Positions 4,683 through 56,923 are shown, counted from the stretch's first letter. The stretch: DNA of 64,000 bases from Candidatus Campbellbacteria bacterium RIFOXYC2_FULL_35_25 (GCA_001774495.1 MFAE01000014.1:10573-74572), one strand, 5' to 3'. Made by a program: numbers and translations. Notes: generated by a model not told the origin, from the sequence alone.

Positions 4683-4692
4683 CAGCAAAGTG

Positions 4693-32195: not shown

Positions 32196-32242
32196 AATAA
32201 TTACTACTTACTACTTAATACCCAATACTTGATACTTGATAC

Positions 32243-32796: not shown

Positions 32797-32974
32797 GAAG
32801 TGTGGTGTTGATTTACGGCGGGCAAATGGAAAAAATGCCCGCCACTTTTAATTTATCTTGTTTTTGTTGTATTATATTAAGATAAATCATGAACCATAAA
32901 ATGGTTTCTTATAATTAATTTAATGGCGAATAAGTTAAAATTACAAATCATTTTTATAATTTAAAGCAATTAAT

Positions 32975-34123: not shown

Positions 34124-34237
34124 TTGGGCAAAGATATTATTGAGAAGATTATTCGTGATTCCTGTTATTTGGATAATTATTGTGACACACCGGGATATAA
34201 TGATCATTCCGGAAGTGATGAACATAACAAAAATTGA
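34124..34237 (+). CDS. 37-aa small peptide (TTG start) MGKDIIEKIIRDSCYLDNYCDTPGYNDHSGSDEHNKN; candidate precursor peptide
   Basis: SD aaggaggtg 5 nt upstream of TTG; hairpin terminator ggagggtgtggtaaaaacaccctcc; radical-SAM gene 74 nt downstream. Confidence 0.4.
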   Translation: MGKDIIEKIIRDSCYLDNYCDTPGYNDHSGSDEHNKN

Positions 34238-34310
34238 TGGAGGAAAAGTTGAAGGAGGGTGTGGTAAAAACACCCTCCTTCTTTAATAAAAAAGGTAATG
34301 AGGTGTTACC

Positions 34311-36434: not shown

Positions 36435-36505
36435 ATCTATACCTGTGGATTTTTATTTAGTAACTACAAACTAAAAACTATCGACTATAAACTATAAACT
36501 AAAAA

Positions 36506-39552: not shown

Positions 39553-40725
39553 TTATATTATTTCAAAACCTTCTATTGTATTATTCTCAATTTTTGATAT
39601 AGACTTATCTTTTTTAGGATATATATGAAGTCCGTTAGGTATTGATCTACCAGGTGCCACAATACATCCTGACCCGAGATAAACTCCGTTACCCAAACAA
39701 CTTCCTAAAAATATGTTTCCCGTATCAATTAAATGATTATCTTTTTTTGTTAAAACATTCTTATTATCAAGCCGAAGGTCGGTTAATATAACGCCAGCCC
39801 CAATAAAGACATCTTTCCCGATGATACTTGCTGATATCATTTGGTTTGCAATTTGTGCGTTTGAATAAATAGTTGAATAAAGAATATGTCCATCAACTAT
39901 TGTGCAGTTATTTCCTATAACTGAATATTCGATGGTTATTCCATTTCCAATAAATGAATCATTCCCGATTACAGATTCCCTTATTATCGTTCCGGCTCCT
40001 ATTGTTACATTATCACCTATGACGCTACATTCAACGATGGCTGTTGGGTGTATATCACATTTTTTTCCTATTTTGTTTAATGAACCTGCTATTTTCCATC
40101 TATTGAAAGAAAAATTTTTAATTGCAAGTAGCAATAAAAGTATTTTATTAGTTTTATTTGCTTGCTCAATTATTGTTATAACAAAAGCAAGATTTGCCGC
40201 CCATAGGTTACTCCAATGATCTATTTGTATGATCGATTTGGTCGTTAATGGTATAAAATATTTACCACTTTTTGATAAATGTTTAGGTAATGGCAAATAC
40301 TCAAATTTTTGGTTTAAATCAAAAATAATTTTTTTTGTTTCGCCCCTTAATTCTTTTGGTGGAAAATAAAATAAATTATAATTAAAATAATCTTTTTTAT
40401 TTTCAACATTTTGCAAATTAATGAAAGTTCTTTCTGTAAAAATTCCTTTTTTCATAGAACATACAGTATTAGATTTAATTTTTTTGGAATTCTGAATAAA
40501 CTCTTTCAAAAGTTCATATTCAAAATATATGTTGTCGTTTATTACCAGATGTTCCTCCTCATCTCTGATTTCAGATAAATTATCAACAATAACGGGGTTT
40601 AGATTAAGTTTCAAGAAATTATCATTCTGTATCTCGTTCAATTTTCTGTTTCCAATTTTTAAATCTTTAGACAACTTTTGAAAAGGTTCTATTAATTCCT
40701 GTTTTTTTATTACATAAATTTTCAT
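39553..40725 (-). CDS. Left-handed beta-helix (hexapeptide-repeat) transferase family protein
   Basis: Run of [LIV]GxxxxI hexapeptide repeats in the C-terminal half. Confidence 0.5.
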   Translation of the reverse strand: MKIYVIKKQELIEPFQKLSKDLKIGNRKLNEIQNDNFLKLNLNPVIVDNLSEIRDEEEHLVINDNIYFEYELLKEFIQNSKKIKSNTVCSMKKGIFTERTFINLQNVENKKDYFNYNLFYFPPKELRGETKKIIFDLNQKFEYLPLPKHLSKSGKYFIPLTTKSIIQIDHWSNLWAANLAFVITIIEQANKTNKILLLLLAIKNFSFNRWKIAGSLNKIGKKCDIHPTAIVECSVIGDNVTIGAGTIIRESVIGNDSFIGNGITIEYSVIGNNCTIVDGHILYSTIYSNAQIANQMISASIIGKDVFIGAGVILTDLRLDNKNVLTKKDNHLIDTGNIFLGSCLGNGVYLGSGCIVAPGRSIPNGLHIYPKKDKSISKIENNTIEGFEII

Positions 40726-40847
40726 ACTAAAATTATACCTTAAAACCTTTTATCGTAGAATGTTAAAGAGGGGATATTTATTAATTTTTTATCTGTTTTC
40801 GAAACAAAACCCCAAAAACCTTTGTTGAATTAAATTTTCTTTTATTT

Positions 40848-40977
40848 AAAAAAATGTTTAGCTGGAGCGGGGGATTAAAGAGAAAACCGTTGACATACAG
40901 GTCTGTTCTGTTACCATTAAGTCGATAGTTCTTAGGTAGTTTGCCTGTAATCTTTGGAAAAAAAGGAGGTGGTAAAA
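40848..40977 (+). promoter_or_regulatory. Promoter/leader cassette P1: G-rich box, TTGACA-16-TACCAT, conserved ~45-nt leader, SD AGGAGGTGGTAA
   Basis: tgtttagctggagcgggggattaaagagaaaaccgTTGACAtacaggtctgttctgtTACCATtaagtcgatagttcttaggtagtttgcctgtaatctttgg..aaggaggtggtaa. Confidence 0.6.
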
Positions 40978-41139
40978 GTGAAAGAGTTGTTGGGTAACAA
41001 CGGAGAAAGAGGAACCCCTTTCCTGTTAGGGTTTCTTGAGAAGATTGAGGTTCCACCAACTGGCTCAGCAAATTGCGCCACATATGTTGGAGCCACCCCA
41101 ACTCCAAGCGGAGACGCTTACGATTACGATCAAGATTAA
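40978..41139 (+). CDS. 53-aa small protein (GTG start) KELLGNNGERGTPFLLGFLEKIEVPPTGSANCATYVGATPTPSGDAYDYDQD
   Basis: Driven by cassette P1; SD 6 nt upstream; bidirectional terminator at ~41165-41215. Confidence 0.4.
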   Translation: MKELLGNNGERGTPFLLGFLEKIEVPPTGSANCATYVGATPTPSGDAYDYDQD

Positions 41140-41196
41140 TCGTCTTTCTAACCCGCGCAAAGGAAAAGATGCTGGTACACCGCCGGCATCTCTTTA

Positions 41197-41844
41197 TTAT
41201 TTATTTTTCAAGATTTTACGCATCGATTTGCTTTCCAAGCTATCCCCTAGAATGAGTTTTAATGTTTGATTTTTATATACTTCTGCTTTTCCATTTTCAC
41301 CAATTTTTTTATAGAAATTTGATAAACCCTGTTTTGCTAAAATTAATTCGTCTTTATTTTTTTTATCAGAAATTTTTTCTGTGTTTTTATACCACCAGAG
41401 TGCTTTATTGTTTTGGTTAAGTCTATCGTATATGTCAGCTAATCTATTTGAAGTTACTGGGTTTTTTTTAATTTTGTAATTTTCCTTTCCTAATTTTATG
41501 GCTTTTTTACTGTTGTTCAAAATAGCATATATTTGTGCTAGGTAAATTCGAGAGTTGAAGGTGATCGAATTTTTTATTTGGGGATCTTTTTTAATTATTT
41601 TTTCTAAAATTTTAATTGATTCGTTAAAATAATCTTTGATATTTCCGGTTTCCTTTTTGCTTTTCTTGTTTTGATATAATCGTTGGGTGGCATCATGATA
41701 CAGAAAAAAAGCTAATTGAAGCATAAGAGTATCTGCCGGAGGGTTTTTTTCTAGATATTTTCTTATAAGAAGAATAGCTCCTGACCGGTCACCCGACATA
41801 TTTAATTTTTTAAGTTTTTTCTCTAATTGGTTTGTTTTTTTCAT
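41197..41844 (-). CDS. TPR-like repeat protein
   Basis: Helical repeat composition (AQIYAILNN.KKAIKL, ALWWYKN). Confidence 0.4.
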   Translation of the reverse strand: MKKTNQLEKKLKKLNMSGDRSGAILLIRKYLEKNPPADTLMLQLAFFLYHDATQRLYQNKKSKKETGNIKDYFNESIKILEKIIKKDPQIKNSITFNSRIYLAQIYAILNNSKKAIKLGKENYKIKKNPVTSNRLADIYDRLNQNNKALWWYKNTEKISDKKNKDELILAKQGLSNFYKKIGENGKAEVYKNQTLKLILGDSLESKSMRKILKNK

Positions 41845-41847
41845 ATG

Positions 41848-42279
41848 CTAATTTATTAAATTTAAGCCGTTTTTTATTGATTCTTTTTCTTGTTCAAAAG
41901 CCAAATATGAATCAACTAAATCAAAAGAAACCCATTCTGCTTTTTCTATTGTAAAACCACCTTCGTTTTTAGAGTCTACTTTAATTTCATCATTTTTTGT
42001 ATTTTCAACAAGAAAAACTCGTACTTTATGTAATATTTCTCCAGCTTGGTACGAATATTTCTCTAATTCATCCATCAAAAGTAAATTTTCCAAACCTGTT
42101 TCCTCTTTTATTTCTCGTATAATAGTTTCCTCAGGTATCTCTCCTGTTTCTATTCCACCTTTTACCAAACGGTAATCAGTTCTGTCTCGCTCTTCGTCAT
42201 ATCTTTTCAATAGTAAAAATTCTACACGTCCTGTGTTTTTTTTAAAAATGACAGCTTGGGCATCTTTACTTATTTCCAT
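41848..42279 (-). CDS. NUDIX hydrolase
   Basis: Nudix box GGIETGEIPEETIIREIKEETGL. Confidence 0.75.
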   Translation of the reverse strand: MEISKDAQAVIFKKNTGRVEFLLLKRYDEERDRTDYRLVKGGIETGEIPEETIIREIKEETGLENLLLMDELEKYSYQAGEILHKVRVFLVENTKNDEIKVDSKNEGGFTIEKAEWVSFDLVDSYLAFEQEKESIKNGLNLIN

Positions 42280-42334
42280 AATATTTTTAATTTAAATATA
42301 ACTTTCTAAATAATAACACATAGGATGCCGTTCT

Positions 42335-43651
42335 TTGATTTTAAAACAAAATGTTAGTATTATTATAACAATGAGTATTTTAAATACATTTAATGTAGTT
42401 CGCTTTGAGAAAAAGCTTAGAAATGGCATTAAGGTTGTTTTATTTTACCGTCCCGGATCTCCCATTACAACACATGCTGTGCTTAATTCTGGCTCAAGAT
42501 TTGACCCTGTAGGTATGTTTGGGGTTGCTCATTTTTTGGAACATCTTGTGGTTGGAGGGTCAGCAGAATTTCCTACTAAAGATTTACTTGCTGAACACAT
42601 CGAATCAATCGGGGGGAGTTTTGGAGCAAGGACAGGTCAGGACTCTTTAATTATTGCAACAGAGGTTCCAGACAAATCTGATTATGGCAGGGTAGTCGAC
42701 ATCTTTAAAGCAACTCTTTGTGAGCCATTGATAGATAAAAAATTTTTTGAAAATGAAAAAAAGGTTGTTGTAAAAGAAGTTAATAGAAGTAATTCAAATC
42801 CTGCTCAGGTTTTAATTAAGACCTGCCGAGATTTATTTTTTAAGGGAACTTCTTTTTCACACGAGGTTCTCGGTGATGCGGAGAGTATTCAGGAACTTGA
42901 TTATGAAAAAGTTGTTGCTATCCATAAAAGAATGTTTGATAAAACAAGGATTACTTTTATCGTATCAGGAGATATTTCTATTGAAGAGCTTGTTTTAAAT
43001 TTAGAAAAACTTAATTTTTTAGAAGGGAATGATTTTTTTGAAAAAAGTTATGAACCTAAGGTTATTTATGAAAAGAGGATTTCATCTTCCCCCCTTGATA
43101 TTCCTCAAACATATATCTGTTTTGGGATTCCGGCACCTAAGCTGTTTAGCAAAGAGTTAGTCCATTTGAATCTAGCGGGAGACATACTAGCCGGTGGTCG
43201 CTCTTCTCGGTTAACAAAGCGTCTTCGTTATGATAAAGGGCTTGTTTACGGTGTAAGATACGGCAGAGTTGGTGGTTTAGAGCTTGGTTTTTGGGGATTT
43301 TTTACTGACACAGCAAGCGAGAATGTTAATGATTTGATGAGTGAAATTTCTGAGGAAATAAAAAATATTAGAACTAATGGAATTAAAGCCTCTGAATTAG
43401 AGTTTGTAAAAAACAAAAATATAAAGTCTCTTAAACGGACGATGCAAACATCAAATAGTTGGGTAGATTTTCATAATCTTTCAGAAGCGTTTTCATCAGA
43501 ACCTTATGATATAGATAATTTCGCAAAATATATTGAGGAAGCAACAGTAGAAGATATTGAAAATATTATTAATAAATACTTTCAAACAAACAATTGGAGA
43601 TTAGCTACTTGTGGGAAAACAGAAGAAGAATCCGTGATTTATAAAATATAG
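42335..43651 (+). CDS. M16-family (pitrilysin-like) zinc peptidase
   Basis: Inverted zinc motif HFLEH (HxxEH). Confidence 0.65.
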   Translation: MILKQNVSIIITMSILNTFNVVRFEKKLRNGIKVVLFYRPGSPITTHAVLNSGSRFDPVGMFGVAHFLEHLVVGGSAEFPTKDLLAEHIESIGGSFGARTGQDSLIIATEVPDKSDYGRVVDIFKATLCEPLIDKKFFENEKKVVVKEVNRSNSNPAQVLIKTCRDLFFKGTSFSHEVLGDAESIQELDYEKVVAIHKRMFDKTRITFIVSGDISIEELVLNLEKLNFLEGNDFFEKSYEPKVIYEKRISSSPLDIPQTYICFGIPAPKLFSKELVHLNLAGDILAGGRSSRLTKRLRYDKGLVYGVRYGRVGGLELGFWGFFTDTASENVNDLMSEISEEIKNIRTNGIKASELEFVKNKNIKSLKRTMQTSNSWVDFHNLSEAFSSEPYDIDNFAKYIEEATVEDIENIINKYFQTNNWRLATCGKTEEESVIYKI

Positions 43652-43682
43652 AGAAATAATTTAAGAAAATAAAAACTCAAAA

Positions 43683-43814
43683 ATCTGGTGGGGTCGATTT
43701 TACTTGACGAAACGCTTGAGGGGGGTAAAATATAGATGAAAGTTTACTTTATGTGAACTTAGTCCTTGGGCGATATTGTCCGTAAAATTCACTAACTACT
43801 AAGGAGGTAGAAAA
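43683..43814 (+). promoter_or_regulatory. Promoter region with G-rich box (tggtggggtcgatt) and TTGACG -35
   Basis: Shares the G-rich box with cassettes P1, P3, P4 and P5. Confidence 0.4.
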
Positions 43815-44027
43815 GTGAAGCATAAAAAGAATTTTGCAGTTAATGATGGGGATTTTAAAAAATCATCTTGGTCAAAGAATAACCCCAAAACCTGTGTCAT
43901 GGTTGCTGTTAAACCGGAGGGGGTTGCTGTTCGGGATAGTAAAGATCCGGCTAAACAGACATTATTTTTTGATCATGATGAGTGGACCGCCTTTGTTAAG
44001 GGCGTGGAAGGTGGTGAATTCCGCTGA
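43815..44027 (+). CDS. DUF397-like small protein (GTG start)
   Basis: CVMVAVKPEGVAVRDSKDPAKQTLFFDHDEWTAFVKGVEGGEF matches the DUF397 pattern; SD aaggaggtag. Confidence 0.45.
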   Translation: MKHKKNFAVNDGDFKKSSWSKNNPKTCVMVAVKPEGVAVRDSKDPAKQTLFFDHDEWTAFVKGVEGGEFR

Positions 44028-44102
44028 GTTCTGCATCATCACTGTTGTCGAGACGGATAGGTGTTAAATCTATCCGTCTTTTATTAGATAAAATATAGTA
44101 TT

Positions 44103-44585
44103 ATGGAAAAAACTTTATATATTATTCCAGGGCTTGGAGAAACTTGTCGGCGTAAACCATATCAATTATTAGCAAAAAAAGCCAAAGAGAAGGGTTATGA
44201 AGTAATCTTTAAGAATGTAGATTGGAATCAAAAATTATCTTTACAAACTTTTTCTGTATCCAAAGACGACATAATTTTTGGTTTTTCTTTGGGGGCTGTT
44301 TTGGCATGGTTGGTAGCACAGGATTATAAATGTAGACACATAATTTTAGCTTCAATGACACCTCATTATTCTTGGAAAGATAAAGAAATAAAAAAAGCAC
44401 TAATTGATTTATTAGGCTTAAAATTTGTAAATGATGTTATAAAAAAACTTGATTCAAAACATCAGGCCAAAAGACAAACAATAATGTATGGGGATCTTGA
44501 GAATGAAAAAGGTGATATTATTGTATCTAAAACAGAGCATGAATTAACTGAAAATTATCTTAAGGAAATTGAGCAAATAATTTAA
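44103..44585 (+). CDS. Small alpha/beta hydrolase, paralog 2
   Basis: LYIIPGLGET and GFSLGA. Confidence 0.5.
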   Translation: MEKTLYIIPGLGETCRRKPYQLLAKKAKEKGYEVIFKNVDWNQKLSLQTFSVSKDDIIFGFSLGAVLAWLVAQDYKCRHIILASMTPHYSWKDKEIKKALIDLLGLKFVNDVIKKLDSKHQAKRQTIMYGDLENEKGDIIVSKTEHELTENYLKEIEQII

Positions 44586-44588
44586 GAA

Positions 44589-45404
44589 ATGAAAATTAAA
44601 GACTTAACACAAAATTATATAACAAACATTTTAGAGAAAGATAATTTGGACTTATATAAAAAAAGTATGCCCGAGTTATTTTCTCATTATTTTGAGTATT
44701 GGGCTTTGGAAGATTACTTTCATAAATCGTTAAAAATAAAAGAAGAAGTTGAAGAAAAAACGGATTTGATAAAATCTCGTTTAGATTTTATTGAAGAAAA
44801 ACTTAAAGATTTTGGTTTTGATACTTCTGATGTAGAAATACTTTTGTTTGTTGGGCAAAACTGCACAAACGGACACGCTTTTGAAAAAGATGGAAAGTTT
44901 ATTGTCTGGCTACCGATTGAGGCTTATGAGAGTAAAGAAGATATTGATATTTTTGTAACCCACGAGATAATCCATGCTTTGCATTATTCTGTAAACCCCG
45001 ATTTTTATTTCAAAACAAAAGAAGAAAAAATGAATGTTGGTAGACAAATAATAACCGAGGGCCTTGCAACTTATCTTACATCAAAAGTTTTGAATATAAA
45101 CGAAGGAAAAGCCTTGTGGGCGGATTTTCTTAATAAAGATGAATTGAAAAATTGGTTTGATAGTTGTGAAGATAAACGATATGAGTTATATGATTTTGTT
45201 TTGAAAAATTTTAATTTTTCAAATAAAGATATTCAGATTTTTTGGGCAAATGATCCAAAAGACGTCTATAAGTATAGAGCGGGTTACTTTGTGGGGTCAG
45301 AATTAATAAAAGATTTTATAAAAAACAATAAGATAGAAGATAAGGACTTATTGTCTTTAGATAGGGTAAAATTTGAAAAAAAAATTACTGAGATGTTGAA
45401 ATAA
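44589..45404 (+). CDS. HExxH motif protein (putative zinc-dependent peptidase)
   Basis: VTHEIIHALHYS. Confidence 0.4.
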   Translation: MKIKDLTQNYITNILEKDNLDLYKKSMPELFSHYFEYWALEDYFHKSLKIKEEVEEKTDLIKSRLDFIEEKLKDFGFDTSDVEILLFVGQNCTNGHAFEKDGKFIVWLPIEAYESKEDIDIFVTHEIIHALHYSVNPDFYFKTKEEKMNVGRQIITEGLATYLTSKVLNINEGKALWADFLNKDELKNWFDSCEDKRYELYDFVLKNFNFSNKDIQIFWANDPKDVYKYRAGYFVGSELIKDFIKNNKIEDKDLLSLDRVKFEKKITEMLK

Positions 45405-45502
45405 AACCCCCAAAAACTGTTGTTGGTTTAGAGCTTATTTTATTTTAAAAGGCAAATAAAGAGGGCTGTTCTGCAGTCCTCTTTAAATATATAATAATAA
45501 TT

Positions 45503-46030
45503 ATGGAAAAAATCATTTATATCATTCCAGGATTGGGAGAAAATTGTAATTTGTTAAGATATAAAAAGTTAGCAGAGGCTTTACAATTTAGTGGTTACAA
45601 AGTGAATTGTGTTAACCCTGATTGGTACATGCCTATTTCTGGACAAGTTTTCAAAATCGAAAAAGAAGCTATTTTGCTCGGTTTTTCTTTCGGTGCCATT
45701 CTCGCTTACCTTGTTGCACAAAAATATCCTTGTAAAAAGGTTATTTTTGCTTCTATGTCACCAATACAGAAGTTTTCTTTTAAAGAACTCGAAAAAGATT
45801 TTAGGAGAGATATTGCCCCTAAGTTAGGAAAAAAGCTTGCTAAGGAAAGAGGGACTGAGTTGGCCAGAGATATAAAAAATATAAAAATTTCCTTGAAGGA
45901 ATTACAGACACCTTTTATTACATTAGTAGGAGAAAAAGAAGAGGAAATGATGCCCGCTGATTTTATTGTTCCACAAACAGGACATATTATGACGAATAGG
46001 TATATAAAATGTATTCAAAAATTAGTTTAA
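45503..46030 (+). CDS. Small alpha/beta hydrolase, paralog 3
   Basis: IYIIPGLGEN and GFSFGA. Confidence 0.5.
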   Translation: MEKIIYIIPGLGENCNLLRYKKLAEALQFSGYKVNCVNPDWYMPISGQVFKIEKEAILLGFSFGAILAYLVAQKYPCKKVIFASMSPIQKFSFKELEKDFRRDIAPKLGKKLAKERGTELARDIKNIKISLKELQTPFITLVGEKEEEMMPADFIVPQTGHIMTNRYIKCIQKLV

Positions 46031-46060
46031 ATTTTATCAAATAATTTTAAAATAAACCCA

Positions 46061-46549
46061 ATGACTAAATTTTATATTATCCCTGGACTGGGGGAAAAGA
46101 GAGAAAACTATCGGTGGCTAATATCAGAGGCAAAAAAGAAATATGATGTAGAATTTCTTAATTTACAACTAAAAAATAATTCTTTTTTAAAACTCACTCA
46201 AACAAAAATAGAACCAAATTCAGTAGTGTTTGGTTTTTCTGTGGGTGCACTTATCGCATATAAATTAAAAACTTATATACAGAAAGGAATTTATTGCTCA
46301 ATGTCTGATTTTTTGGGCAGTGATAGCAAGAAAGTGTTTAAAGATTTGGTTGATTTTTTTGGTGAAGAAACTGCTAATGAATTAAAAAAATTGAGGTATG
46401 GAAAACCAAAAGCAAAAGAAGTTTTTTTGTTTTGTGGAGATAGAGAGATGAGTGAAAGGATGAATAAGATCGGTGGTGTTAAAATTATTAAAAACACAGA
46501 ACACAAATTTACAAAGAACTATAAAAAAGCTGTTCTAGATGTTATTTGA
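46061..46549 (+). CDS. Small alpha/beta hydrolase, paralog 4
   Basis: FYIIPGLGEK and GFSVGA. Confidence 0.5.
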   Translation: MTKFYIIPGLGEKRENYRWLISEAKKKYDVEFLNLQLKNNSFLKLTQTKIEPNSVVFGFSVGALIAYKLKTYIQKGIYCSMSDFLGSDSKKVFKDLVDFFGEETANELKKLRYGKPKAKEVFLFCGDREMSERMNKIGGVKIIKNTEHKFTKNYKKAVLDVI

Positions 46550-46781
46550 ATTAAGAAAAAATAAATAAAAATTGTTTTTAAATTATAACATTATAATTTA
46601 AAAAACTAAAAAAAAGCAGGGGATTAGGGGTTATTTGGTTTCTAACTCCCAAAAACTGTTGTTGGTTTAGATTTCCTTTTATTTTAAAAAATTTCGGTTG
46701 GGGTGGGGTTATTGACTTTTCGCTTATAAAAGAGCATTTTCTAATTAGGTTGAACCTTTAATAATAGAGAGGAGGTTGGTG

Positions 46782-47423
46782 ATGTCACTAAAGGGAATAT
46801 TCATTGTAAGACATGCTGAGTCAGATGAAGATATTAATCCTAATTTAAATGGCGAAGTGGTAGACTCGGAGATATCTATCACCACGCTTGGTCAAAAGCA
46901 GGCTTTCGAAATAAAATCTCAACTCCAAAAAATCCTTCCAGTATTCAGAGGGTTGAGGGTTATTGTCTCTACGTCGAATCGAGCAATTGAAACAGCTAGA
47001 ATTTTAACTGAAGGATTTGTTGATGAGGGGAATAAGTATTATTCTTTCGAAAATTCGATACGGAACCTTAATTGGGGAGATGTTAATCAAACTAATGTTA
47101 GACAGATAGAAAAGGAGAGATATGAAGTGGGAGTTTTATTCTATAGTTTCCTTGGTGGGGACCATACTCCTGAGTATGTGAAAAACATCCAGTCTTTTAC
47201 CGACAGATGTCTAAAGGAAGGTTTGCAATCCAATCATCCAGAAGCATTACTGATTGTTGCTCATGGTTTTTCCATGAGAGTCATTGTGAAATGCTTTCTA
47301 GGTATGAGCGATGATGAATTCAAATGGCTAGCAAATCCCCACAACTGTTTTATTGTAAATCTTGCAGTGGATGGTGAACACATTAACCTTAAGACAAAGA
47401 TGCCTATCTATAAAGCAAGATAA
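46782..47423 (+). CDS. Histidine phosphatase superfamily (phosphoglycerate-mutase-like) protein
   Basis: IVRHAES (RHG-type) motif; preceded by the G-rich box ggttggggtggggttaTTGACT and SD gagaggagg. Confidence 0.65.
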   Translation: MSLKGIFIVRHAESDEDINPNLNGEVVDSEISITTLGQKQAFEIKSQLQKILPVFRGLRVIVSTSNRAIETARILTEGFVDEGNKYYSFENSIRNLNWGDVNQTNVRQIEKERYEVGVLFYSFLGGDHTPEYVKNIQSFTDRCLKEGLQSNHPEALLIVAHGFSMRVIVKCFLGMSDDEFKWLANPHNCFIVNLAVDGEHINLKTKMPIYKAR

Positions 47424-47484
47424 ATAATGGCGAAAAGCCTGTCTCTGGTTTCATTTAGAGCAGGCTTTTGTTATAATAATTTGT

Positions 47485-48015
47485 ATGAATAAATTAGATT
47501 TAGTACTTACAGACTTGTTAATATTTCCCACAAAAGAATATCCTAATCCAGAAAAATACGAAGAAAGAGTAACAGTAAAAGCGATTGTTGAGAACGGAGA
47601 AGGTAAAATTGCATTTGTTACAAATCCAGTACATGGATTTTATATTTTGCCTGGGGGTGGTGCCGAGTCAGACAATTTGATTGAAGAGGTTAAAAGAGAA
47701 TGTGATGAAGAAATAAATTGGGAAGTTGCTGAAGTTGCTGAAGTTGCAAGCATAGAAGAGTTTAGAAATAGAAATGCTAAACATTACATGACATATTGTT
47801 ATAGTGCAAAACCTACTAAAGAACTTCCTAGTGACACAAGAACTGATGACGAAAAAGAAAATGGACTTGAGGTTGTTTGGTTAGAAAAAAATGAGGCTAT
47901 TAAAAAATTATTGTCACAGACAGAATCTCTTAAAAGAGGTGAGGTAGAATTTTATAATACAGGATTTAACATACTTAGAGATTGCATGTTTCTACAGAAG
48001 TACTTAGATAATTAA
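47485..48015 (+). CDS. NUDIX hydrolase
   Basis: Nudix box GGGAESDNLIEEVKRECDEEI. Confidence 0.7.
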   Translation: MNKLDLVLTDLLIFPTKEYPNPEKYEERVTVKAIVENGEGKIAFVTNPVHGFYILPGGGAESDNLIEEVKRECDEEINWEVAEVAEVASIEEFRNRNAKHYMTYCYSAKPTKELPSDTRTDDEKENGLEVVWLEKNEAIKKLLSQTESLKRGEVEFYNTGFNILRDCMFLQKYLDN

Positions 48016-48016
48016 T

Positions 48017-49033
48017 TTATTTTTTGATAAAGTCTATAATAGTTTTAGTGACCTCTCTCTCTAAGTCTGGTTTTTCGTAAACTCTTTTCCAAGAGCTGTT
48101 GTTTTGTTTGTAGTGAAAGCTAGATTTTTCTAGAGTATATTGCCCTAGACATAAACATTGGAATTCAAATAAGTAAAACTTGCCATCTCTATAGCCAATA
48201 TCTAAAGACATAAACGGGGTGTTAAATTTCTCATATATTTTCTTTGAATAGTCCAACAAACCTTTTGGTGGAGTTATTTCAAAATTTAATTTACCACTCC
48301 CACTAGCTCTGAAATCATCTTTTCTATTTTCTCTGTACACACAGTAATATTTATCTCCATAGGCTAAAATCCTATAATCACCTTTTAAATCTGGTATAAA
48401 ATTTTGAATAATAAATTTACATCGATTATTAGACATAGGAGTGTATCTTCTACCTGTTTTAATTTTGGAGACCCACAATTTAAAATTTTCAAAAGTAAAA
48501 GACCTCGATATTTTATGGGCATATTTTCTCTTTTTTGATTGAGTATTTAGAAGTTCGATATTAGAACTTCTTGTTCCAGATCCAGGTTTAATTATTGTTA
48601 ATTTATTGGATTTGAATAGGTCACTTTTAGAATATTCTTCAAAGGTACCAAAACCTCGTGATTGTATATTTTTAATTTCATCAATATTCATAGAATCGCG
48701 AAGTATCTCCATAAAAACCTTGTTATGATGTGCTCTAAAATATGGAAAATTTGGAATAAGTTTTGCACCCTGTAATTCTAGAGCTAATACAATATCTTCT
48801 ATGTAACTTTTATATAGTAGATTAGGATCTTCTGACGATTGGTATAGTACCCATTCATTAGTGTAATTCTCTGTTCGGAAGTTTATTTCATGGAAATTTT
48901 TAATAATTAGGTCAAAACCAGCTTTTTTGAAATTAGCTTTAAGTTTATTAATATCTATACAAGCACCACGATATCGAGTTGAGAAATAAAACTGATCTCG
49001 GTAGTCTATTAGTAAGTAAATTTTATTATTCAT
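48017..49033 (-). CDS. ATP-grasp fold ligase-like protein
   Basis: LTIIKPGSGTRSSNIEL, FIIQNFIPDLKGDYRILAYGDKYYCV, FMSLDIGYRDGKFYLFEFQ. Confidence 0.45.
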   Translation of the reverse strand: MNNKIYLLIDYRDQFYFSTRYRGACIDINKLKANFKKAGFDLIIKNFHEINFRTENYTNEWVLYQSSEDPNLLYKSYIEDIVLALELQGAKLIPNFPYFRAHHNKVFMEILRDSMNIDEIKNIQSRGFGTFEEYSKSDLFKSNKLTIIKPGSGTRSSNIELLNTQSKKRKYAHKISRSFTFENFKLWVSKIKTGRRYTPMSNNRCKFIIQNFIPDLKGDYRILAYGDKYYCVYRENRKDDFRASGSGKLNFEITPPKGLLDYSKKIYEKFNTPFMSLDIGYRDGKFYLFEFQCLCLGQYTLEKSSFHYKQNNSSWKRVYEKPDLEREVTKTIIDFIKK

Positions 49034-49069
49034 ATGAATAATAAAACTTTACCCATAATAAAGCTCTTT

Positions 49070-49171
49070 GTCTAGTAAAATCGTTGACAGATTAAGCAAC
49101 TTTGTTACTATTAAGTTGATAGCTCTTAGGTAGTTTGTCTGTAATCTTTTGAAAGAAAGGAGGTGGTAAGA
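49070..49171 (+). promoter_or_regulatory. Promoter/leader cassette P2 (TTGACA, conserved leader, AGGAGGTGGTAA)
   Basis: tcgTTGACAgattaagcaactttgttactattaagttgatagctcttaggtagtttgtctgtaatcttttg..aggaggtggtaag. Confidence 0.55.
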
Positions 49172-49240
49172 ATGTCTGGTAACGGTGGAAACCATCAAGG
49201 TGGTGGAACTGGAGGGGGCGGCGGCGGCCGGAAGCAGTAA
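49172..49240 (+). CDS. 22-aa glycine-rich peptide MSGNGGNHQGGGTGGGGGGRKQ
   Basis: ATG 7 nt after the cassette SD; hairpin and T-run downstream; C39-like peptidase gene follows. Confidence 0.35.
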   Translation: MSGNGGNHQGGGTGGGGGGRKQ

Positions 49241-49298
49241 CCTTCGGTTTTTTCTAAAAGGGGTGGCTGTTGCCACTCCCTTTTTATATAATAAAGAC

Positions 49299-49940
49299 AT
49301 GAAAAAAATACCATTTTATTCTAATTTAAAAGATAATAATCATTGCATCCAAGCTTGTTTGAAGATGGTTATTAAGTATTACTTTCCAGCAAAAAATTAC
49401 TCTTTTAAAGAGTTAGACAAAATGTCAAAACATAAAAAAGGAATGTGGACTTGGCAGGGAGCTTCTTTGCTCGCTCTCGCAGATATGGGTCTTGAAGTTG
49501 TAAATATTGAAAATATAGATTACAAAAAATTTGCTGAGCAGGGGGAAATGTATTTACAAAATATTTGGAGTGAAGAGGTTTTTGCAACACAAGATAAATA
49601 TTCAGATTTAAAGCAAGAAAAGAAAATTGCACAAAAAATGGTTGAGAGTAAAAAAATGAAATTGGCAAATAGGGATGCAAAATTTTCTGATGTTGAGGGT
49701 TATTTTGCCAAGGATTATTTGGTTTTAGTTTCTGTGAATCCTTGTGTTTTTGAAAATAAAAAGTGTTATTGGAGTCACATTGTTTTAATTACCGATATAA
49801 ATGACCGCTGGGTCACATTTCATGATGTCGGTTTACCTCCTGTCGAAAATAGAAAAATCAGTAGAAAAATTTTTGAAAAAGCGATGACTAAACCTTGGAA
49901 AGAGGACACTAATGTCATTGCTTTAAAATATGAAAAATAA
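49299..49940 (+). CDS. Papain-like cysteine peptidase, C39-like (bacteriocin-processing type) domain protein
   Basis: NNHCIQACLKMVIKYY (Cys nucleophile context) and HIVLITDINDRWVTFHDVG (His context); tool start at 49185 lies upstream of the likely ATG at 49299. Confidence 0.45.
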   Translation: MKKIPFYSNLKDNNHCIQACLKMVIKYYFPAKNYSFKELDKMSKHKKGMWTWQGASLLALADMGLEVVNIENIDYKKFAEQGEMYLQNIWSEEVFATQDKYSDLKQEKKIAQKMVESKKMKLANRDAKFSDVEGYFAKDYLVLVSVNPCVFENKKCYWSHIVLITDINDRWVTFHDVGLPPVENRKISRKIFEKAMTKPWKEDTNVIALKYEK

Positions 49941-49982
49941 AAACTGTTGTTGGTTTAGATTTTTTTTATTTTAATTATATTT

Positions 49983-50110
49983 AAAAAATGTTTAGCTAGG
50001 GTGGGTGATTATGCAAAACCGTTGACATACAGGTCTGTTCTGTTACCATTAAGTCGATAGTTCTTGGGCAGTTTTCTTTAATCTCTTGTGAAGAAAAGGA
50101 GGTGGTAATA
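49983..50110 (+). promoter_or_regulatory. Promoter/leader cassette P3 (G-rich box, TTGACA-16-TACCAT, leader, SD)
   Basis: tgtttagctagggtgggtgatt..ccgTTGACAtacaggtctgttctgtTACCATtaagtcgatagttcttgggcag..aaggaggtggtaa. Confidence 0.6.
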
Positions 50111-50302
50111 GTGGGTTGGTTTACTGGAAACAGTGACGATGGATCAAAGGTGAAGGTTACGGATTCTGGGGATACTCACAAGACGGAAAAGATATCTTCC
50201 TCTGACCGTCCTCATTCTCATGACATCGTGAAGATTGATAAGCCCTCAGGATCTGTGAAGGAAATAAGTATTGGGCCTAATGCTTCACGAAGAGGCAAGT
50301 AA
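50111..50302 (+). CDS. 63-aa hydrophilic small protein (GTG start)
   Basis: Driven by cassette P3; hairpin terminator gacacagccctcacggctgtgtt. Confidence 0.35.
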   Translation: MGWFTGNSDDGSKVKVTDSGDTHKTEKISSSDRPHSHDIVKIDKPSGSVKEISIGPNASRRGK

Positions 50303-50410
50303 GCTTTTTATGTGGCAAGACACAGCCCTCACGGCTGTGTTTCATTTTATATTTATTCTATAATATAAAATGTAAGAAATTTAATTTTTTAGTAATATTT
50401 ATATAAATAA

Positions 50411-51637
50411 ATGAAAGCCCCATTCCAAAAAAAAGACAATGACTTATATGTCGTTAATTTCCCTCAAAAAACCAAGGATATTTTTTTTGATATTTATCTG
50501 AGAACTGGTTATTCTGAAGAATCAAATAATGAGTTTGGTATTGGCCATTTGCTAGAACATTATTTGGTAGAATCTCTAACTGATAATATGAAATTTGTTA
50601 ATGGTTCTACTGGACAAGATTTTACCAATTATTATTTACAGTCAGATTCTAAAAGAATAGTAAAAGATGTTAAAATTTTTTTGAATACTATTTTAAATTC
50701 AAATTTTAGCGACGAGAAATTATTTAAAAGAGAAAAAGAAGTAATTGAAAATGAAATTCGCAACAAAAAAAATATTAAAGAAGAATCTCTTAATTTTATT
50801 TTAAAAAAATTTTTTGGTAGTAATTTCCCCTACGCTAGAGAAAAAGTAAATCAAATTTCAAATATTAAAAAATTCAAATTTGGCGATATTAAGAAACACC
50901 ATAATAAGATTTTTTGTAGCGGAAATATTTTTTTTGTTCTTTCTGGTTTTAATATTGATGGGAAAATGGAAAATAATATTTTAAATATTATTAAAGAACA
51001 TAAACTTGCTAAAATTAAAAAAAATAAAAGAATAGAGTATTCTTTTTCGGGGGAAAAGTTTGTTAAAAACTCAAAATATTACTGGAATGACGAATTGATA
51101 GTTAATGTTTCTTTTGATTTTTCGAAGAAAATTAGAAAAAATACAAAAAACATAAAAGCTATAAACATGCTTAGAAAATATTTTGAAGATTTAGATTTTT
51201 ATTGTGCAAAAAATATGAGAGATTTGGGGATCTACTCTAGTTCTTTCGAATGGATGATTTGGGATAACGCGGGAATAGTTATTTTGTCTTCTATGTTAAA
51301 TGGAGGGAAGGCGAATATTATTTTGGGAGAGTTTTTAAAATTTTTAGAAAAAGTTAAAAAAGATGGAATTTCAAATGGCGATTTAGTCAAATTGAGGAGA
51401 AAAGAAAAAGAGGGGCTTACCAAAGCCTTCGGGAATAATGCAAGAAGATTAAGTTGGGTTGTAAATGATTTGCTCTCCTATGGCGATGTGACTTTATTAA
51501 AAGATGATATTAAAGAATTAAAGAGTATTGATTCCAATTATATAAAAAAAATTGCTAAAAAACTTTTTGATTTTGATAAGATGAATATAACTATCTTAGG
51601 AAAGGATGCTGGAAAGACTAAAATTAAACTGGACTAA
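50411..51637 (+). CDS. M16-family zinc peptidase
   Basis: HLLEH (HxxEH). Confidence 0.6.
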   Translation: MKAPFQKKDNDLYVVNFPQKTKDIFFDIYLRTGYSEESNNEFGIGHLLEHYLVESLTDNMKFVNGSTGQDFTNYYLQSDSKRIVKDVKIFLNTILNSNFSDEKLFKREKEVIENEIRNKKNIKEESLNFILKKFFGSNFPYAREKVNQISNIKKFKFGDIKKHHNKIFCSGNIFFVLSGFNIDGKMENNILNIIKEHKLAKIKKNKRIEYSFSGEKFVKNSKYYWNDELIVNVSFDFSKKIRKNTKNIKAINMLRKYFEDLDFYCAKNMRDLGIYSSSFEWMIWDNAGIVILSSMLNGGKANIILGEFLKFLEKVKKDGISNGDLVKLRRKEKEGLTKAFGNNARRLSWVVNDLLSYGDVTLLKDDIKELKSIDSNYIKKIAKKLFDFDKMNITILGKDAGKTKIKLD

Positions 51638-51654
51638 ATAATTTTAATTATATT

Positions 51655-51796
51655 TTTAAAAATGCTTGGTTGGAGTGGGGTATTAAAGAGAAAACCGTTG
51701 ACACAAGTAGTCGTTTTGTTATTATTAATGGGATAGTACTTTGTTTTTCGGTTCTAATTTTACAATTGGATATTTCCAAAAAAGGAGGTGGTGATC
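51655..51796 (+). promoter_or_regulatory. Promoter/leader cassette P4 (G-rich box, TTGACA, longer leader, SD aaggaggtggtga)
   Basis: tgcttggttggagtggggtattaaagagaaaaccgTTGACAcaagtag... Confidence 0.55.
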
Positions 51797-51959
51797 TGTG
51801 AATATCCCCGAAATAATGGTAACGGGTATTAACCCAGGTAAAAAACCCACTGGCTTTTATCTTGATGTTTCGCAAGGTTATAATGAATGTGAAAATGATA
51901 ATTGCGGTGGCGGTTTTGGGGATTGCTCTGATTGTGGAGCTGATCCAGATCCAAACTAA
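51797..51959 (+). pseudogene. Cysteine-rich small peptide gene with an apparent frameshift at the A-run at 51899-51901. The GTG-initiated frame stops at 51929-51931; the Cys-rich end (NCGGGFGDCSDCGADPDPN) is in the adjacent frame.
   Basis: Removing one A from gataaattgc would give the continuous 53-aa product NIPEIMVTGINPGKKPTGFYLDVSQGYNECENDNCGGGFGDCSDCGADPDPN; a sequencing error or a genuine frameshift. Confidence 0.3.
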
Positions 51960-52072
51960 TTATCAAATTGTTTTTAAGCACCTTATCCCTGATACAATTG
52001 GGGATGAGGTGTTTTTTGTGGTAATATACTTAATAATATAATGTCTAAAGTTAATAATTTTTAAATAAAAAT

Positions 52073-52696
52073 ATGAAATTTAATATATATTATTCCATTG
52101 ATTTTGATGTTGATCGGGTCTTAGAAACTATAAATAAATTTGAATGGTTTAAATCCAATAATTATAGTGTAATTTTACCTAAATACCTTGATTTATCTGA
52201 TATAAAAAAAATAACAAAAGAGGATGTCAAAAAAGTAATACTAAAAGAATATAACGAGCAAGATTATTTAAAACAAAAAGAGTATTTAGAAAATAATTTA
52301 GAAAAGTTGATATTAAATGAAAATATTGAAGAAAAAATTAAAAGCACAACCCTTGTTTTATCAAAAGACTATAATATCTATTTTACAAAATATGGTGTTG
52401 GTGGGAGTTACCATTTGCCAAATAAAATAGTAATAAACATAAATCGTTGTTTCGAATTTGGTTTACTTAGGACGATAATTCATGAAATTATTCATCTCTC
52501 AATCCAGCTTTTTGTTGAAAAATATAATATTAATCATTGGACAAAAGAAAGATTGGTTGATTTGTTATTTGATAAATTTGCTCCCAAAATAAATAAAATT
52601 CAAACGATTTCTATTGATACAAATTTAATTGATGAAAGTTTTGAAAAAAATTATCCAAATGTAGAAAAAATAATAAGTGAGATAAGAGAAAAATAG
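52073..52696 (+). CDS. HExxH motif protein (putative metallopeptidase)
   Basis: RTIIHEIIHLSIQ. Confidence 0.4.
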   Translation: MKFNIYYSIDFDVDRVLETINKFEWFKSNNYSVILPKYLDLSDIKKITKEDVKKVILKEYNEQDYLKQKEYLENNLEKLILNENIEEKIKSTTLVLSKDYNIYFTKYGVGGSYHLPNKIVININRCFEFGLLRTIIHEIIHLSIQLFVEKYNINHWTKERLVDLLFDKFAPKINKIQTISIDTNLIDESFEKNYPNVEKIISEIREK

Positions 52697-52861: not shown

Positions 52862-53908
52862 ATGACTGCTATAAGAAAAGTAGATCAAAACAATGAAATT
52901 ATTCCCCGCTCCGCTTGGATAACAGTTAATCGTGCTTGCAATTTTCGTTGTAGCGGATGCTATGCTAAAAATACAGGGTATGGTTTAAAGCAAAGCATGA
53001 GTTTTGAACTTTCAAAAAAGATCGCAAACCTTGTTTCATCGTTAGGGATTTCAAGAATTACAATAATTGGAGGAGAACCTACTTTATGGAATAATTTATC
53101 TAATTTCAATAAATTTTGTATAGATAAAGGTTTGCAAACTAGAATTGTTACAAATGCAATGAGATTTGGAGATGATAATTTTTGGTTAGATTATACAAAA
53201 AGCCCAAATACAAGAGCCGGAGTATCTATAAAAGCTTTTGATAAGAAAAGCTTAAAGGATATTACGGGAATTGATTCATTTGAATTTGTTAAAAAAGGTT
53301 TGCAGAGAGCTATTTCACATTTTAAATGTGGGGTTAGCACTGTTTATTCTACAACTTCGGCTAGTCATATACTTAATATTACTAAATTCGCTATGGATTG
53401 TGGGGCAAAAAGTATAAGTATAAGCCCTTGTACGCCAAGATTTTGTAATGGAAAAGTAGACGGCGCTTATGTTGTAGAGCCAGTAGCAATGACAAAACAT
53501 CTTATTAAAATCTATCCAAAACTTGTTGAGATCACTAATGGTAATATTGTATTTTTAATGAAATTACCTCTGTGTTTGTGGCCGGATGATTTTGTTAAAA
53601 ATCTAATAGAGGAAAATCAAATTAACACTATTTGCCAATTACAACATAGGAGTGGCATTATTTTTGATGTTGATGGAAAACTTATGTTATGTAATAGTCT
53701 TTTCGATTACCCTGTTGGTAAATATGGGGTTGATTTTTTTAACAAAAAATCGTTAATTGCTTTATTAAACAACCGGAAGACTCTTGATGTTTATGATAGG
53801 TTAACATCTTATCCATCAAAAAAATGTATGAATTGTAATCGTTACGATGTTTGTGCCGGTGGATGTCCTTTATTTTGGGCTCTTTTTGACCCAGAAAGTT
53901 TAATTTAA
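52862..53908 (+). CDS. Radical SAM enzyme with C-terminal SPASM-like cysteine cluster
   Basis: CNFRCSGCY, IIGGEPTL, C-terminal CMNCNRYDVCAGGCP. Confidence 0.75.
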   Translation: MTAIRKVDQNNEIIPRSAWITVNRACNFRCSGCYAKNTGYGLKQSMSFELSKKIANLVSSLGISRITIIGGEPTLWNNLSNFNKFCIDKGLQTRIVTNAMRFGDDNFWLDYTKSPNTRAGVSIKAFDKKSLKDITGIDSFEFVKKGLQRAISHFKCGVSTVYSTTSASHILNITKFAMDCGAKSISISPCTPRFCNGKVDGAYVVEPVAMTKHLIKIYPKLVEITNGNIVFLMKLPLCLWPDDFVKNLIEENQINTICQLQHRSGIIFDVDGKLMLCNSLFDYPVGKYGVDFFNKKSLIALLNNRKTLDVYDRLTSYPSKKCMNCNRYDVCAGGCPLFWALFDPESLI

Positions 53909-56288: not shown

Positions 56289-56401
56289 TTTAAAAATAAA
56301 AACCCAAAAATCTATGGAGTAGTGGATTAAATTAAAAAAGTTCCCCATATGCATACTACATACAATAGAGAACTTTACTCTTGTCTGCTTCTTAGGGGCA
56401 T

Positions 56402-56653
56402 TCAATGCCCAGCAGTACATTTCAGCGGGCAATTATTACTCTTAGGGAAGATGCTCCCACATTTGATGCACTGCAACTTGTTTCCTGGACTTAGCAGATT
56501 CCTCCCGTCGGTTCTTCCTTTTTTGCATACTGGGCAAAAAGCTTGTTCTGCTTTTATTCCAGAAAAAGTTAGACGACAATGAGGACAAAAAATCCTCTCT
56601 AAACTACTAGGCCATTCGCCGATTATTCTTATTGTTGTTCCTGTCACAACCAT
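56402..56653 (-). CDS. Small zinc-ribbon protein (4x CxxC) in a GC-richer patch
   Basis: CPHC..CPVC..CIKC..CPLKC; SD aaggaggtagcaaATG. Confidence 0.45.
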   Translation of the reverse strand: MVVTGTTIRIIGEWPSSLERIFCPHCRLTFSGIKAEQAFCPVCKKGRTDGRNLLSPGNKLQCIKCGSIFPKSNNCPLKCTAGH

Positions 56654-56923
56654 TTGCTACCTCCTTTTTCTAGGGCGCATAGTGATTAATAAGAAGATAA
56701 AGCATCAGCATTTCTTTTTACATATTATGTAAAAAACACCACACTGTCAATTCTTTTTTGATTCTTTTTGAAATTGACTTCTTTTGAACATTATGTGAAA
56801 ATACAAGTATATGAGAAGCAAAATAAATTCATCTTGGTGGTCTATTTTTTAAGGATTGTTAAGTCTGAAGTTTTTTATTTTGTTTTTTGAAATCTCTGAC
56901 TTAACAGGGGTTTTTTAATTATT

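Follow-up and report, generated by a model that had tools for sequence, protein, structure and literature searches.

Analysis of a 64 kb stretch of DNA (hereafter the window) from Candidatus Campbellbacteria bacterium RIFOXYC2_FULL_35_25, an uncultured Parcubacteria bin of the Candidate Phyla Radiation (CPR; Patescibacteria) from aquifer groundwater, revealed a promoter-leader module present in four full copies, each lying directly upstream of a different small open reading frame (ORF) and ending where that ORF begins. The copies are mosaics of separable parts, the ORFs behind them share no homology, and the module is restricted to one Campbellbacteria lineage. We lean towards the view that it is a young, lineage-specific, recombining expression module of the kind termed putative mobile promoters. 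CPR bacteria cannot be grown alone and almost nothing is known of their promoters, leaders and regulation; the module supplies a concrete, strong candidate promoter and ribosome-binding site for them, usable for reporter constructs or heterologous expression. It also draws attention to small-peptide genes whose expression is probably high and joint, some of them beside radical SAM, peptidase and transporter genes.

A promoter-leader module in front of four small ORFs

A reading of the window from its sequence alone (the sequence-only reading) had described a reiterated promoter and leader cassette placed before small-peptide genes, with four full copies, and these were found where it had put them by a direct-repeat scan, a four-way alignment, an exact pattern search and an nhmmer profile search. 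The core pattern CGTTGACA-N13-TGTTAYYATTAA occurs four times in the window, always on the plus strand (40888, 49082, 50020 and 51696), as does the block AAAGGAGGTGGTRA that contains the Shine-Dalgarno (SD) sequence (40962, 49156, 50095 and 51781), with about 0.01 occurrences of core pattern and SD block expected by chance from shuffled sequence. The core consists of a perfect -35 element (TTGACA), a 16-nt spacer and a TG-extended -10 element (TAYYAT). An nhmmer profile built from the copies recovered the same four sites alone in the window (E-values from 1e-24 to 1e-32), the next match (E=0.004) being a mere A-tract and SD ahead of another small ORF.

The promoter scan, the predicted terminators and the adjacency of the ORFs all bear out the placement before small-peptide genes. 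All four copies lie directly 5' of small ORFs (53, 22, 63 and 53 aa) and abut their start codons. Among the promoters predicted on the plus strand between 40.7 and 52.9 kb, those of the module occupy four of the top five places (11, 10, 10 and 10 of 12 matches) and are the sole predictions with at least 10 of 12 matches and a TG extension, while four of the six predicted terminators fall directly after the four small ORFs. The SD comprises 10 nt complementary to the usual anti-SD (AAAGGAGGTG), positioned 8-9 nt before the start codon. This 10-mer occurs seven times in the window, five of them confirmed ahead of small ORFs (the four copies and 34111); the shorter GGAGGTG is found eleven times, and GGAGGTGGT is restricted to the four copies.

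Comparison of the units gives a common order: an optional 46-nt repeat, an optional G-rich box (G-box), the core promoter, the leader, an A-tract with the SD, a spacer of 8-9 nt, a GTG or ATG start, the small ORF and a hairpin terminator (Table 1). The G-box is present in three of the full copies and absent from the one at 49070, as had been described. It also stands before the DUF397 gene (43686) and the histidine-phosphatase gene (46699), as claimed, but what had been called the phosphatase promoter amounts to a -35-like TTGACT with no convincing -10 element. The conserved 20-mer noted earlier, AAAACTGTTGTTGGTTTAGA, is exact at 45413, 46652 and 49940 (0.04 expected), two of the positions given for it (45411 and 46637) being off by a few bases. 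It proves to be part of the 46-nt repeat, a fourth copy of which, 78% identical, is found at 40807; the repeat copy at 45405 precedes a hairpin and a gene start rather than a module promoter.

Table 1. Positions of the module copies, of the ORFs and terminators behind them, and of other features in the window
Feature	Coordinates	Strand	Details
Second repeat family	23425-23548, 30125-30325, 32241-32543, 33809-34078, 36443-36609		88-98% identical
Histidine kinase	36506-38092		HisKA_7TM, HisKA and HATPase_c domains recorded for the identical L023 gene
Module copy 1	40807-40977	+	Type I, full; 46-nt repeat 40807-40852; G-box CTGGAGCGGGGGA 40862-40874; -35 TTGACA 40890-40895; TG-extended -10 TACCAT 40912-40917; leader ~54 nt; SD AAAGGAGGTGGTAA 40962-40975
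ORF 1	40978-41139	+	53 aa, GTG start, VKELLGNNGERGTPFLLGF...DAYDYDQD
Terminator hairpin after ORF 1	41167-41191	+	Predicted
M16-type peptidase	42371-43651
Partial copy	43686-43731	+	G-box variant AAAAATCTGGTGGGGT, then TTGACG-16-TAAAAT promoter of the DUF397 gene
DUF397 gene	43815-44027		Own G-box promoter and terminator; no XRE-type regulator adjacent
Three tandem hydrolase-like paralogues	44103-46549
DUF2268 protease-like protein	40-54 kb region		Stop codon directly before 45405
Lone 46-nt repeat	45405-45450	+	Directly after the DUF2268 stop codon; no module promoter next to it
Partial copy	46644-46717	+	46-nt repeat 46644-46689; G-box TGGGGTGGGGTT 46699-46710; TTGACT 46712-46717; upstream of the histidine-phosphatase gene
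Histidine-phosphatase gene	46782-47423
Two NUDIX proteins	40-54 kb region
Module copy 2	49078-49171	+	Type I leader; without G-box or 46-nt repeat; spacer unrelated to the others; -35 TTGACA 49084-49089; -10 TACTAT 49106-49111; SD 49156-49169
ORF 2	49172-49240	+	22 aa, MSGNGGNHQGGGTGGGGGGRKQ
Terminator hairpin after ORF 2	49260-49279	+	Predicted; C39-like gene starts ~20 nt on
C39-like peptidase gene	49299-49940
Module copy 3	49932-50110	+	Type I, full; 46-nt repeat 49932-49977; G-box CTAGGGTGGGTGA 49996-50008; -35 TTGACA 50022-50027; -10 TACCAT 50044-50049; SD 50095-50108
ORF 3	50111-50302	+	63 aa, GTG start
Terminator hairpin after ORF 3	50318-50342	+	Predicted
M16-type peptidase	50411-51637
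Module copy 4	51636-51797	+	Type II; leader ~65 nt, different from type I; G-box TTGGAGTGGGGTA 51670-51682; -35 TTGACA 51698-51703; -10 TATTAT 51720-51725; SD AAAGGAGGTGGTGA 51781-51794
ORF 4	51798-51959	+	53 aa; Cys-, Gly- and Asp-rich C-terminus
Terminator hairpin after ORF 4	51976-52014	+	Predicted
Radical SAM enzyme	52862-53908		207-aa HExxH protein and MMPL transporter also encoded in the 40-54 kb region

The copies are mosaics that end at the start codon

The sequence-only reading had overlooked that the copies differ from one another piecewise. Copies 1 and 3 are 100% identical through the promoter and spacer, within a 51-nt stretch that runs from just ahead of the -35 element to about +10, and 82% identical in the leader. 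Copy 2 does not share the promoter spacer, which is 38% identical to that of copy 1; besides the -35 element only the -10 element, leader and SD are held in common, the leaders of the two being 89% identical. The leader of about 45 nt reported as shared by all four is common to three copies only (type I; 79-89% in pairwise comparisons of copies 1, 2 and 3). That of the copy at 51655 (copy 4, type II) differs from it, being 11-12 nt longer and 48-52% identical to the type I leaders of the window in global alignments; comparisons of type II with type I leaders give 48-54%. Its counterpart lies in a metagenome contig, L015, to which copy 4 is 100% identical in the promoter, 84% in the leader and 89% over 151 nt overall.

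The SD block is 74-90% identical in all pairs of copies. From the first codon onward identity is 39-57%, a range similar to that of comparisons between unrelated leaders, and homology therefore ends at the start codon. The copies are mosaic recombinants of one lineage, and because they are mosaic and confined to that lineage they point to recent promoter reuse rather than ancient conservation.

The small ORFs and their partner genes

Judged from sequence, the four small ORFs are real and unrelated to one another. ORF 1 is an orphan, the sole database match in a homology search being the same protein of Candidatus Campbellbacteria RIFOXYC2_FULL_35_25. It contains the stretch P-F-L-L-G-F, its C-terminus is rich in Thr and Asp, and a TPR gene adjoins it; by eye, these features recall the Phhx(1,2)h-like stretch and Thr/Asp-rich tail of the CPR graspetide precursors described in PMC8939145, a resemblance that is a lead and not a test. 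ORFs 2, 3 and 4 have separate homologues elsewhere in Patescibacteria, without the module. An ORF 2-like peptide is encoded upstream of the C39-like peptidase gene in the relatives L044, L045 and L046, behind unrelated leaders. Two such peptides, MSGNGGNHGGGGQGGGGGGRGK and MSGNGGNHNGGGQGGGGGGKDGK, are encoded directly 5' of C39-like genes whose proteins are 77% and 69% identical, and a terminator separates peptide gene and peptidase gene. Small hydrophilic proteins, most of them of 66-75 aa, make up the conserved family of ORF 3 (10 cluster representatives at E<=1e-3, the best 3.6e-16), with the motif DGS.MKV....KTERISS..RPHxHDIVKVDKPSGxVKEIS; the family is unannotated and has no Pfam match. 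Downstream of ORF 4 are encoded a 207-aa HExxH protein, a radical SAM enzyme and an MMPL transporter. Homologues of the 207-aa protein across Patescibacteria likewise have a small ORF before them, and in L041 a similar Cys-rich peptide, with no module upstream, is encoded between the radical SAM gene and the 207-aa homologue.

The pairing of peptide and putative maturase is thus kept elsewhere for ORF 2 with the C39-like gene (L044, L045 and L046) and for ORF 4 with the 207-aa HExxH protein and radical SAM enzyme (L041 and the P0005 contig), these two ORFs alone being those for which such pairing is seen. By their gene context, ORFs 2 and 4 may encode precursors resembling those of peptides that are ribosomally synthesized and modified post-translationally (RiPPs), with modification putative.

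Two observations concern the C39-like locus in its own right. A Gly-rich peptide of 22-23 aa (MSGNGGNH..GGGGGG..) is conserved before a stand-alone C39-like gene in several Patescibacteria (window 49172-49940; L044 5648-6413; L046 9767-10573). In the window and in L044 the start codon of the C39-like gene follows a TATAAT-like sequence by about 8 nt, and its mRNA may be leaderless.

Distribution of the module

The exact core pattern has eight single matches among 185,579 GTDB species genomes, in unrelated taxa and all judged to be chance; it has no match in viral contigs, and a blastn search of a phage collection returned none. A scan of the metagenome collection gave two true matches. In L015 a type II module lies ahead of a different ORF, of 60 aa. 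In L017 a type I module precedes ORF 1, module and ORF being identical to those of the window from the G-box on. What lies ahead of them differs: the region upstream matches the repeat found upstream of the phosphatase gene, and 22 nt are inserted between the 46-mer and the G-box. At the loci of relatives (L041-L046), among them those with C39-like proteins 69-79% identical, neither blastn-short nor nhmmer detected the module.

The order of copies 2-4 (48.8-64 kb) recurs at 99.9-100% in independent assemblies from ENA, JGI and Logan, and many short metagenome contigs end at or near module copies. One contig, L034, joins 40234-40980 of the window (upstream of copy 1) to 49939-50413 (ORF 3), with the switch inside the shared 51-mer; it represents a deletion of 9.1 kb that arose when direct repeats recombined, or else a misassembly, the latter because the junction sits within the 51-nt stretch common to copies 1 and 3. 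Another, L033, is 100% identical to 48665-50388 and has unrelated flanks.

Pieces resembling parts of the module occur at other places. At 11942-12030 a TTGACA-16-TATCCT promoter directly adjoins a G-rich box, TGGTGTGG; this promoter stands before an unannotated 139-aa ORF (12029-12448), and the end of its spacer, GTTTTGTTAT, has a match in module copy 4. At 56290-56320, after the MMPL gene, the G-box segment recurs in degenerate form (CAAAAATCTATGGAGTAGTGGATTAAA). The segment 46575-46640 contains a perfect 10-bp inverted repeat (TAAATTATAA-CA-TTATAATTTA) followed by a hairpin (GGGGATTAG..CTAACTCCC) resembling a minus-strand terminator, and is 87.5% conserved between the regions upstream of the phosphatase gene and of ORF 1 in L017 (minus strand, ~300-370).

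Origin and function of the module

As a recombining expression module, the repeat comprises a near-consensus sigma-70-type promoter, an unstructured leader (~54 nt in type I, ~65 nt in type II) with an A-tract at its end, and an SD that is very strong. Exchange between copies, by homologous recombination or gene conversion, would have put it before at least five unrelated small-protein genes, four in the window and one in L015. The 3' crossover possibly took place at the SD shared by the small genes; the sharp 3' boundary could arise in this way because small genes share this SD even in relatives (AAAGGAGGTG in L041 and L044). Each unit would then combine strong transcription with translation of a short peptide, and the hairpin would insulate the unit or attenuate read-through into the genes for the C39-like and M16-like proteins and for the HExxH protein, radical SAM enzyme and MMPL transporter. 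Going by this anatomy and by what is generally known of RiPP operons, the terminators might set the ratio of peptide to peptidase or maturase. The copies are probably co-regulated because they share upstream pieces (46-mer and G-box) and the +1 region, and expression of the peptides is probably high and coordinated.

Several points weigh against recent reuse of such a module. That the promoters are active, where transcription starts and that the terminators work are predictions from consensus sequences. High identity alone cannot tell recent duplication from purifying selection, and the start-codon boundary seen in every copy could also reflect selection on a function encoded in the leader. 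L034 and L033, which would testify to ongoing recombination, are contigs of ~2x coverage and could be misassemblies. Finally, the copy counts cover about 70 kb of one genome, made up of the window and 6 kb beyond its 3' end, a segment that holds rpoB, rpoC and dnaG only and zero further module copies.

Other origins were weighed against this one. Were the four units paralogues arisen by plain segmental gene duplication, their coding parts would have diverged past recognition while the 5' region was kept. Local duplication has been active here, as witnessed by the three tandem hydrolase-like paralogues, and a weak N-terminal G-N-G motif recurs in ORFs 1, 2 and 3 and the L015 ORF, with a 13-nt run (AACGGAGAAAGAG) in ORF 1 and the L015 ORF. 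However, ORFs 2, 3 and 4 have their own homologues elsewhere behind different upstream regions, identity drops from 90% in the SD block to the level of the coding regions within a few bases of the start codon, and the mosaic breakpoints inside the promoter of copy 2 are not expected from whole-gene copying; we regard duplication as highly improbable. Still further from what we would expect is a miniature mobile element with an outward promoter (a miniature inverted-repeat transposable element, or a Correia- or REPIN-like element) or an assembly artefact, to which we give hardly any credence. Promoter-bearing miniature elements are known (PMC3575422) and, as noted, many metagenome contigs break at or near the copies. 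Yet an inverted-repeat search found no terminal inverted repeats or consistent flanking duplications at the module ends, all copies share one orientation (+) and abut start codons, no transposase or recombinase is present among the window ORFs scanned, and the phage collection and viral contigs hold no match; the agreement between the three independent assemblies speaks against an artefact.

The shared leader had earlier been taken to suggest a cis-regulatory RNA or a common regulator binding site. A structured regulatory RNA is not supported: nothing in the window reaches the Rfam gathering threshold, none of the sub-threshold matches (E<=5, 40700-52100) falls inside the promoter-leader modules, single-sequence folds of the leaders are no better than those of shuffles (z = -1.46, +1.02, +0.56, -0.21 and +0.56), the consensus leader fold of -0.88 kcal/mol has 0 compensatory pairs in a comparison of five sequences and thus of low power, and one copy has another leader altogether. 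In a looser form of the idea, the leader would act in cis through a weak SD-sequestering hairpin (pyrimidine tract, A-rich loop and SD, as in a fourU-type thermometer) or as the target of a trans-acting small RNA or protein for joint translational control. A pyrimidine run (UCUUU/UUUCC) 6-7 nt upstream of the SD can indeed pair over 5-7 bp with AAGGAG(G) in every copy (minimum-free-energy folds; consensus pairs 42-46 with 51-55), and copy 2 keeps its leader homology despite a replaced promoter spacer. But this pairing is weak and not better than in shuffles, the two leader types share neither sequence nor length, and an A-tract with a strong SD also precedes other small ORFs (20947 and 34111) and therefore looks generic, and we hold leader-mediated control of this sort to be improbable. 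As for a binding site, a regulator shared by the module copies is plausible, with the G-box and the +1 region as candidate sites. On this view one transcription factor, perhaps a response regulator paired with the histidine kinase at 36506-38092, would bind the 46-mer, the G-box (around -52 to -62) and the stretch from +1 to +22, and the genes would form a regulon kept by selection. Such a regulon could go together with module reuse, from which it differs in what keeps the sequence conserved; as an account of the repeat we consider it unlikely, if with some real chance of being right. G-boxes are rare in a genome of ~31% GC and yet stand upstream of five to six plus-strand promoters, two of them otherwise unrelated (DUF397 and phosphatase); the 16-mer AAAAATCTGGTGGGGT is the same at 43680 and in L015, the motif GAYAG-N2-CTT just after the -10 element is retained in both leader types, and the peptide 2/C39-like pair of L046 neighbours acyltransferase, HAD and histidine-kinase genes. 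Between +1 and +22 there is also an imperfect direct repeat, GATAGTTC / GGTAGTTT, at a spacing of 11 nt, but one spotted by eye in AT-rich sequence and in five sequences only. Also against a common operator, the distance from G-box to -35 element is 3, 10, 14 or 16 nt across the sites and therefore not helically consistent, copy 2 has neither G-box nor 46-mer, neither a Response_reg nor a LytTR protein was found beside the kinase, nor any response regulator at all, among the window ORFs scanned with Pfam (most, though not all, of those of at least 90 aa), and inspection of the aligned -100 to -36 regions and a direct-repeat scan revealed no LytTR-type repeats, that is, two 9-bp direct repeats at a period of about 21 nt upstream of the -35 element.

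Two further candidates were rejected. Complementarities between leader and coding sequence (I1, I3 and I2) were judged to be chance, involving a different part of the leader in each copy. A reading of the G-box as the -35 element and of an invariant CGTT as the -10 element of an extracytoplasmic function (ECF) sigma factor was set aside: the spacing varies from 17 to 19 nt and copy 2 lacks the box.

A more far-reaching idea, which we think distinctly unlikely, is that the expression module serves both as the handle of a regulon and as a recombination substrate: one regulator, through the G-box and the +1 repeats, would switch on unrelated peptides, both RiPP-like ones and small hydrophilic proteins, and exchange between modules would swap, delete and recruit peptide genes. 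It is hinted at because the L034 junction lies in the 51-mer, L015 has a type II module on a different ORF, and L017 has ORF 1 in another context. If true, the peptide repertoire would vary from strain to strain in an episymbiotic CPR bacterium, much as in Mycoplasma expression-site systems.

A second promoter-leader repeat family

Reuse of promoter and leader before small-peptide genes seems to be a habit of this genome region, because a second, unrelated repeat family also precedes small ORFs. By self-comparison of the window, this family is a 3'-end fragment of the histidine-kinase gene, the original being at 36506-36609 on the minus strand. A promoter follows in three of the five copies (30125, 32241 and 33809), with TTATTGACAGTAT in two of these, and the copies at 32241 and 33809 also share most of a leader. 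The same three copies precede ORFs at 30444-30530 (28 aa), 32582-32797 (71 aa) and 34125-34238 (37 aa), the last being followed by a radical SAM/SPASM gene. In the leader of this family a hairpin differs between two copies by AGAGTTT..AAACTCT as against AAAGTTT..AAACTTT, the G-to-A change being matched by a C-to-T change.

Genomic setting

ORF 1 and the 207-aa protein are 98-100% identical to the NCBI proteins A2442_01470 and A2442_01540, and groundwater metagenomes of PRJNA292723 hold contigs identical to the window. Most 2-kb windows have a GC content of ~27-36%.

The three hydrolase-like paralogues are short, diverged alpha/beta-hydrolase-like proteins (160, 175 and 162 aa) with duplicated upstream segments, that at 44077-44147 resembling 45480-45547; in a strain variant, L025, a TatD-like gene takes the place of the DUF2268 gene after the first paralogue. 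The DUF397 (BldB-like) family of small proteins, a member of which is encoded just upstream of them, is typical of actinomycetes. Proteins of 338 aa (48017-49033) and 319 aa (30617-31576) are possible ATP-grasp ligases, with a sub-threshold GSH-S_ATP match only (E=0.035); the two have no PDB sequence match and no mutual similarity.

Elsewhere in the window, 14706-15776 matches the family of EcoRI-type adenine methyltransferases very strongly (Pfam E=2e-133), a sign that a restriction-modification system may be present, and an uncalled minus-strand ORF of ~80 aa at 56420-56660 has a strong SD and CxxC pairs like those of a zinc ribbon. The tRNA cluster region contains a tandem duplication of ~192 bp at 84% identity (3502-3914; 4687-4878), and 4703-4826 forms a 75% repeat with 13668-13795, the member at 13.7 kb lying in a GC-rich (45%) stretch beside a tRNA.

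Comparison with known systems

In the pln, blp and spp regulons of lactic acid bacteria, near-identical promoters on separate small-peptide and processing units place these under joint control. Each of those promoters carries a pair of 9-bp direct repeats at a distance of ~21 nt, to which a LytTR response regulator binds whose gene adjoins that of the kinase, and the leader and SD are not shared. The present locus is similar in having several peptide units with near-identical promoters and a histidine kinase nearby; unlike those regulons it shows no 9-bp repeats and no response regulator among the scanned ORFs, and its shared unit includes the leader and SD. The vsp, vlp and vsa systems of Mycoplasma, small-genome host-associated bacteria, combine a near-identical promoter and 5' untranslated region (UTR) with differing coding parts, which recombination reshuffles. 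Their products are lipoproteins, the shared part reaches into a conserved signal peptide, and switching is driven by dedicated recombinases of the site-specific kind or by repeat tracts. The combination of a shared promoter and 5' UTR with differing coding parts recurs in the module, but the extension into a signal peptide, the lipoproteins and the switching machinery are not seen here.

The gene content recalls RiPP loci, in which a precursor gene may have a promoter to itself and a leaky terminator ahead of the maturase genes. CPR graspetide and radical SAM/SPASM loci include TPR protein and hydrolase-like genes nearby, with precursors bearing a Phhx(1,2)h stretch and a Thr/Asp-rich tail (PMC8939145). 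Here too a precursor-like ORF and a hairpin are followed by C39-like, M16-like, HExxH, radical SAM and MMPL genes, with TPR and hydrolase-like genes in the vicinity. ORF 3, a member of a conserved family of small proteins, lacks the appearance of a hypervariable precursor. One promoter-leader across unrelated precursors is not part of the description in PMC8939145, where the word promoter has 0 occurrences, and RIFOXYC2_FULL_35_25 was not found in the supplements of that paper. Nor did a literature search yield a promoter-level description for CPR/Patescibacteria.

The closest likeness is to putative mobile promoters, defined by an identity of 80% or more across 50 nt or more in the interval from -150 to -50 of the start, before non-paralogous genes; no known mobile element is attached to them, and whether recent duplication or selection accounts for them is unclear there (Matus-Garcia, Nijveen & van Passel 2012, PMC3575422). 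Copies 1 and 3 fall within this definition (83% over ~100 nt of that interval), as does the non-paralogy of the coding sequences; copy 4 and L015 are 85% identical over the interval, and copy 2 reaches 57-61%, below the cut-off because its homology lies at -75 to -1. As in PMC3575422, similar upstream regions thus stand before non-paralogous genes of one genome. Unlike the promoters described there, the module takes in the entire 5' UTR as far as the SD and ends at the start codon, is built of separable sub-modules (46-mer, G-box, core promoter and two leader types) recombined at each site, serves small-peptide genes only, and resides in a CPR/Patescibacteria host. Promoter reuse itself is a documented phenomenon, and the module is one more case of it, a clean one that ends exactly at the start codon.

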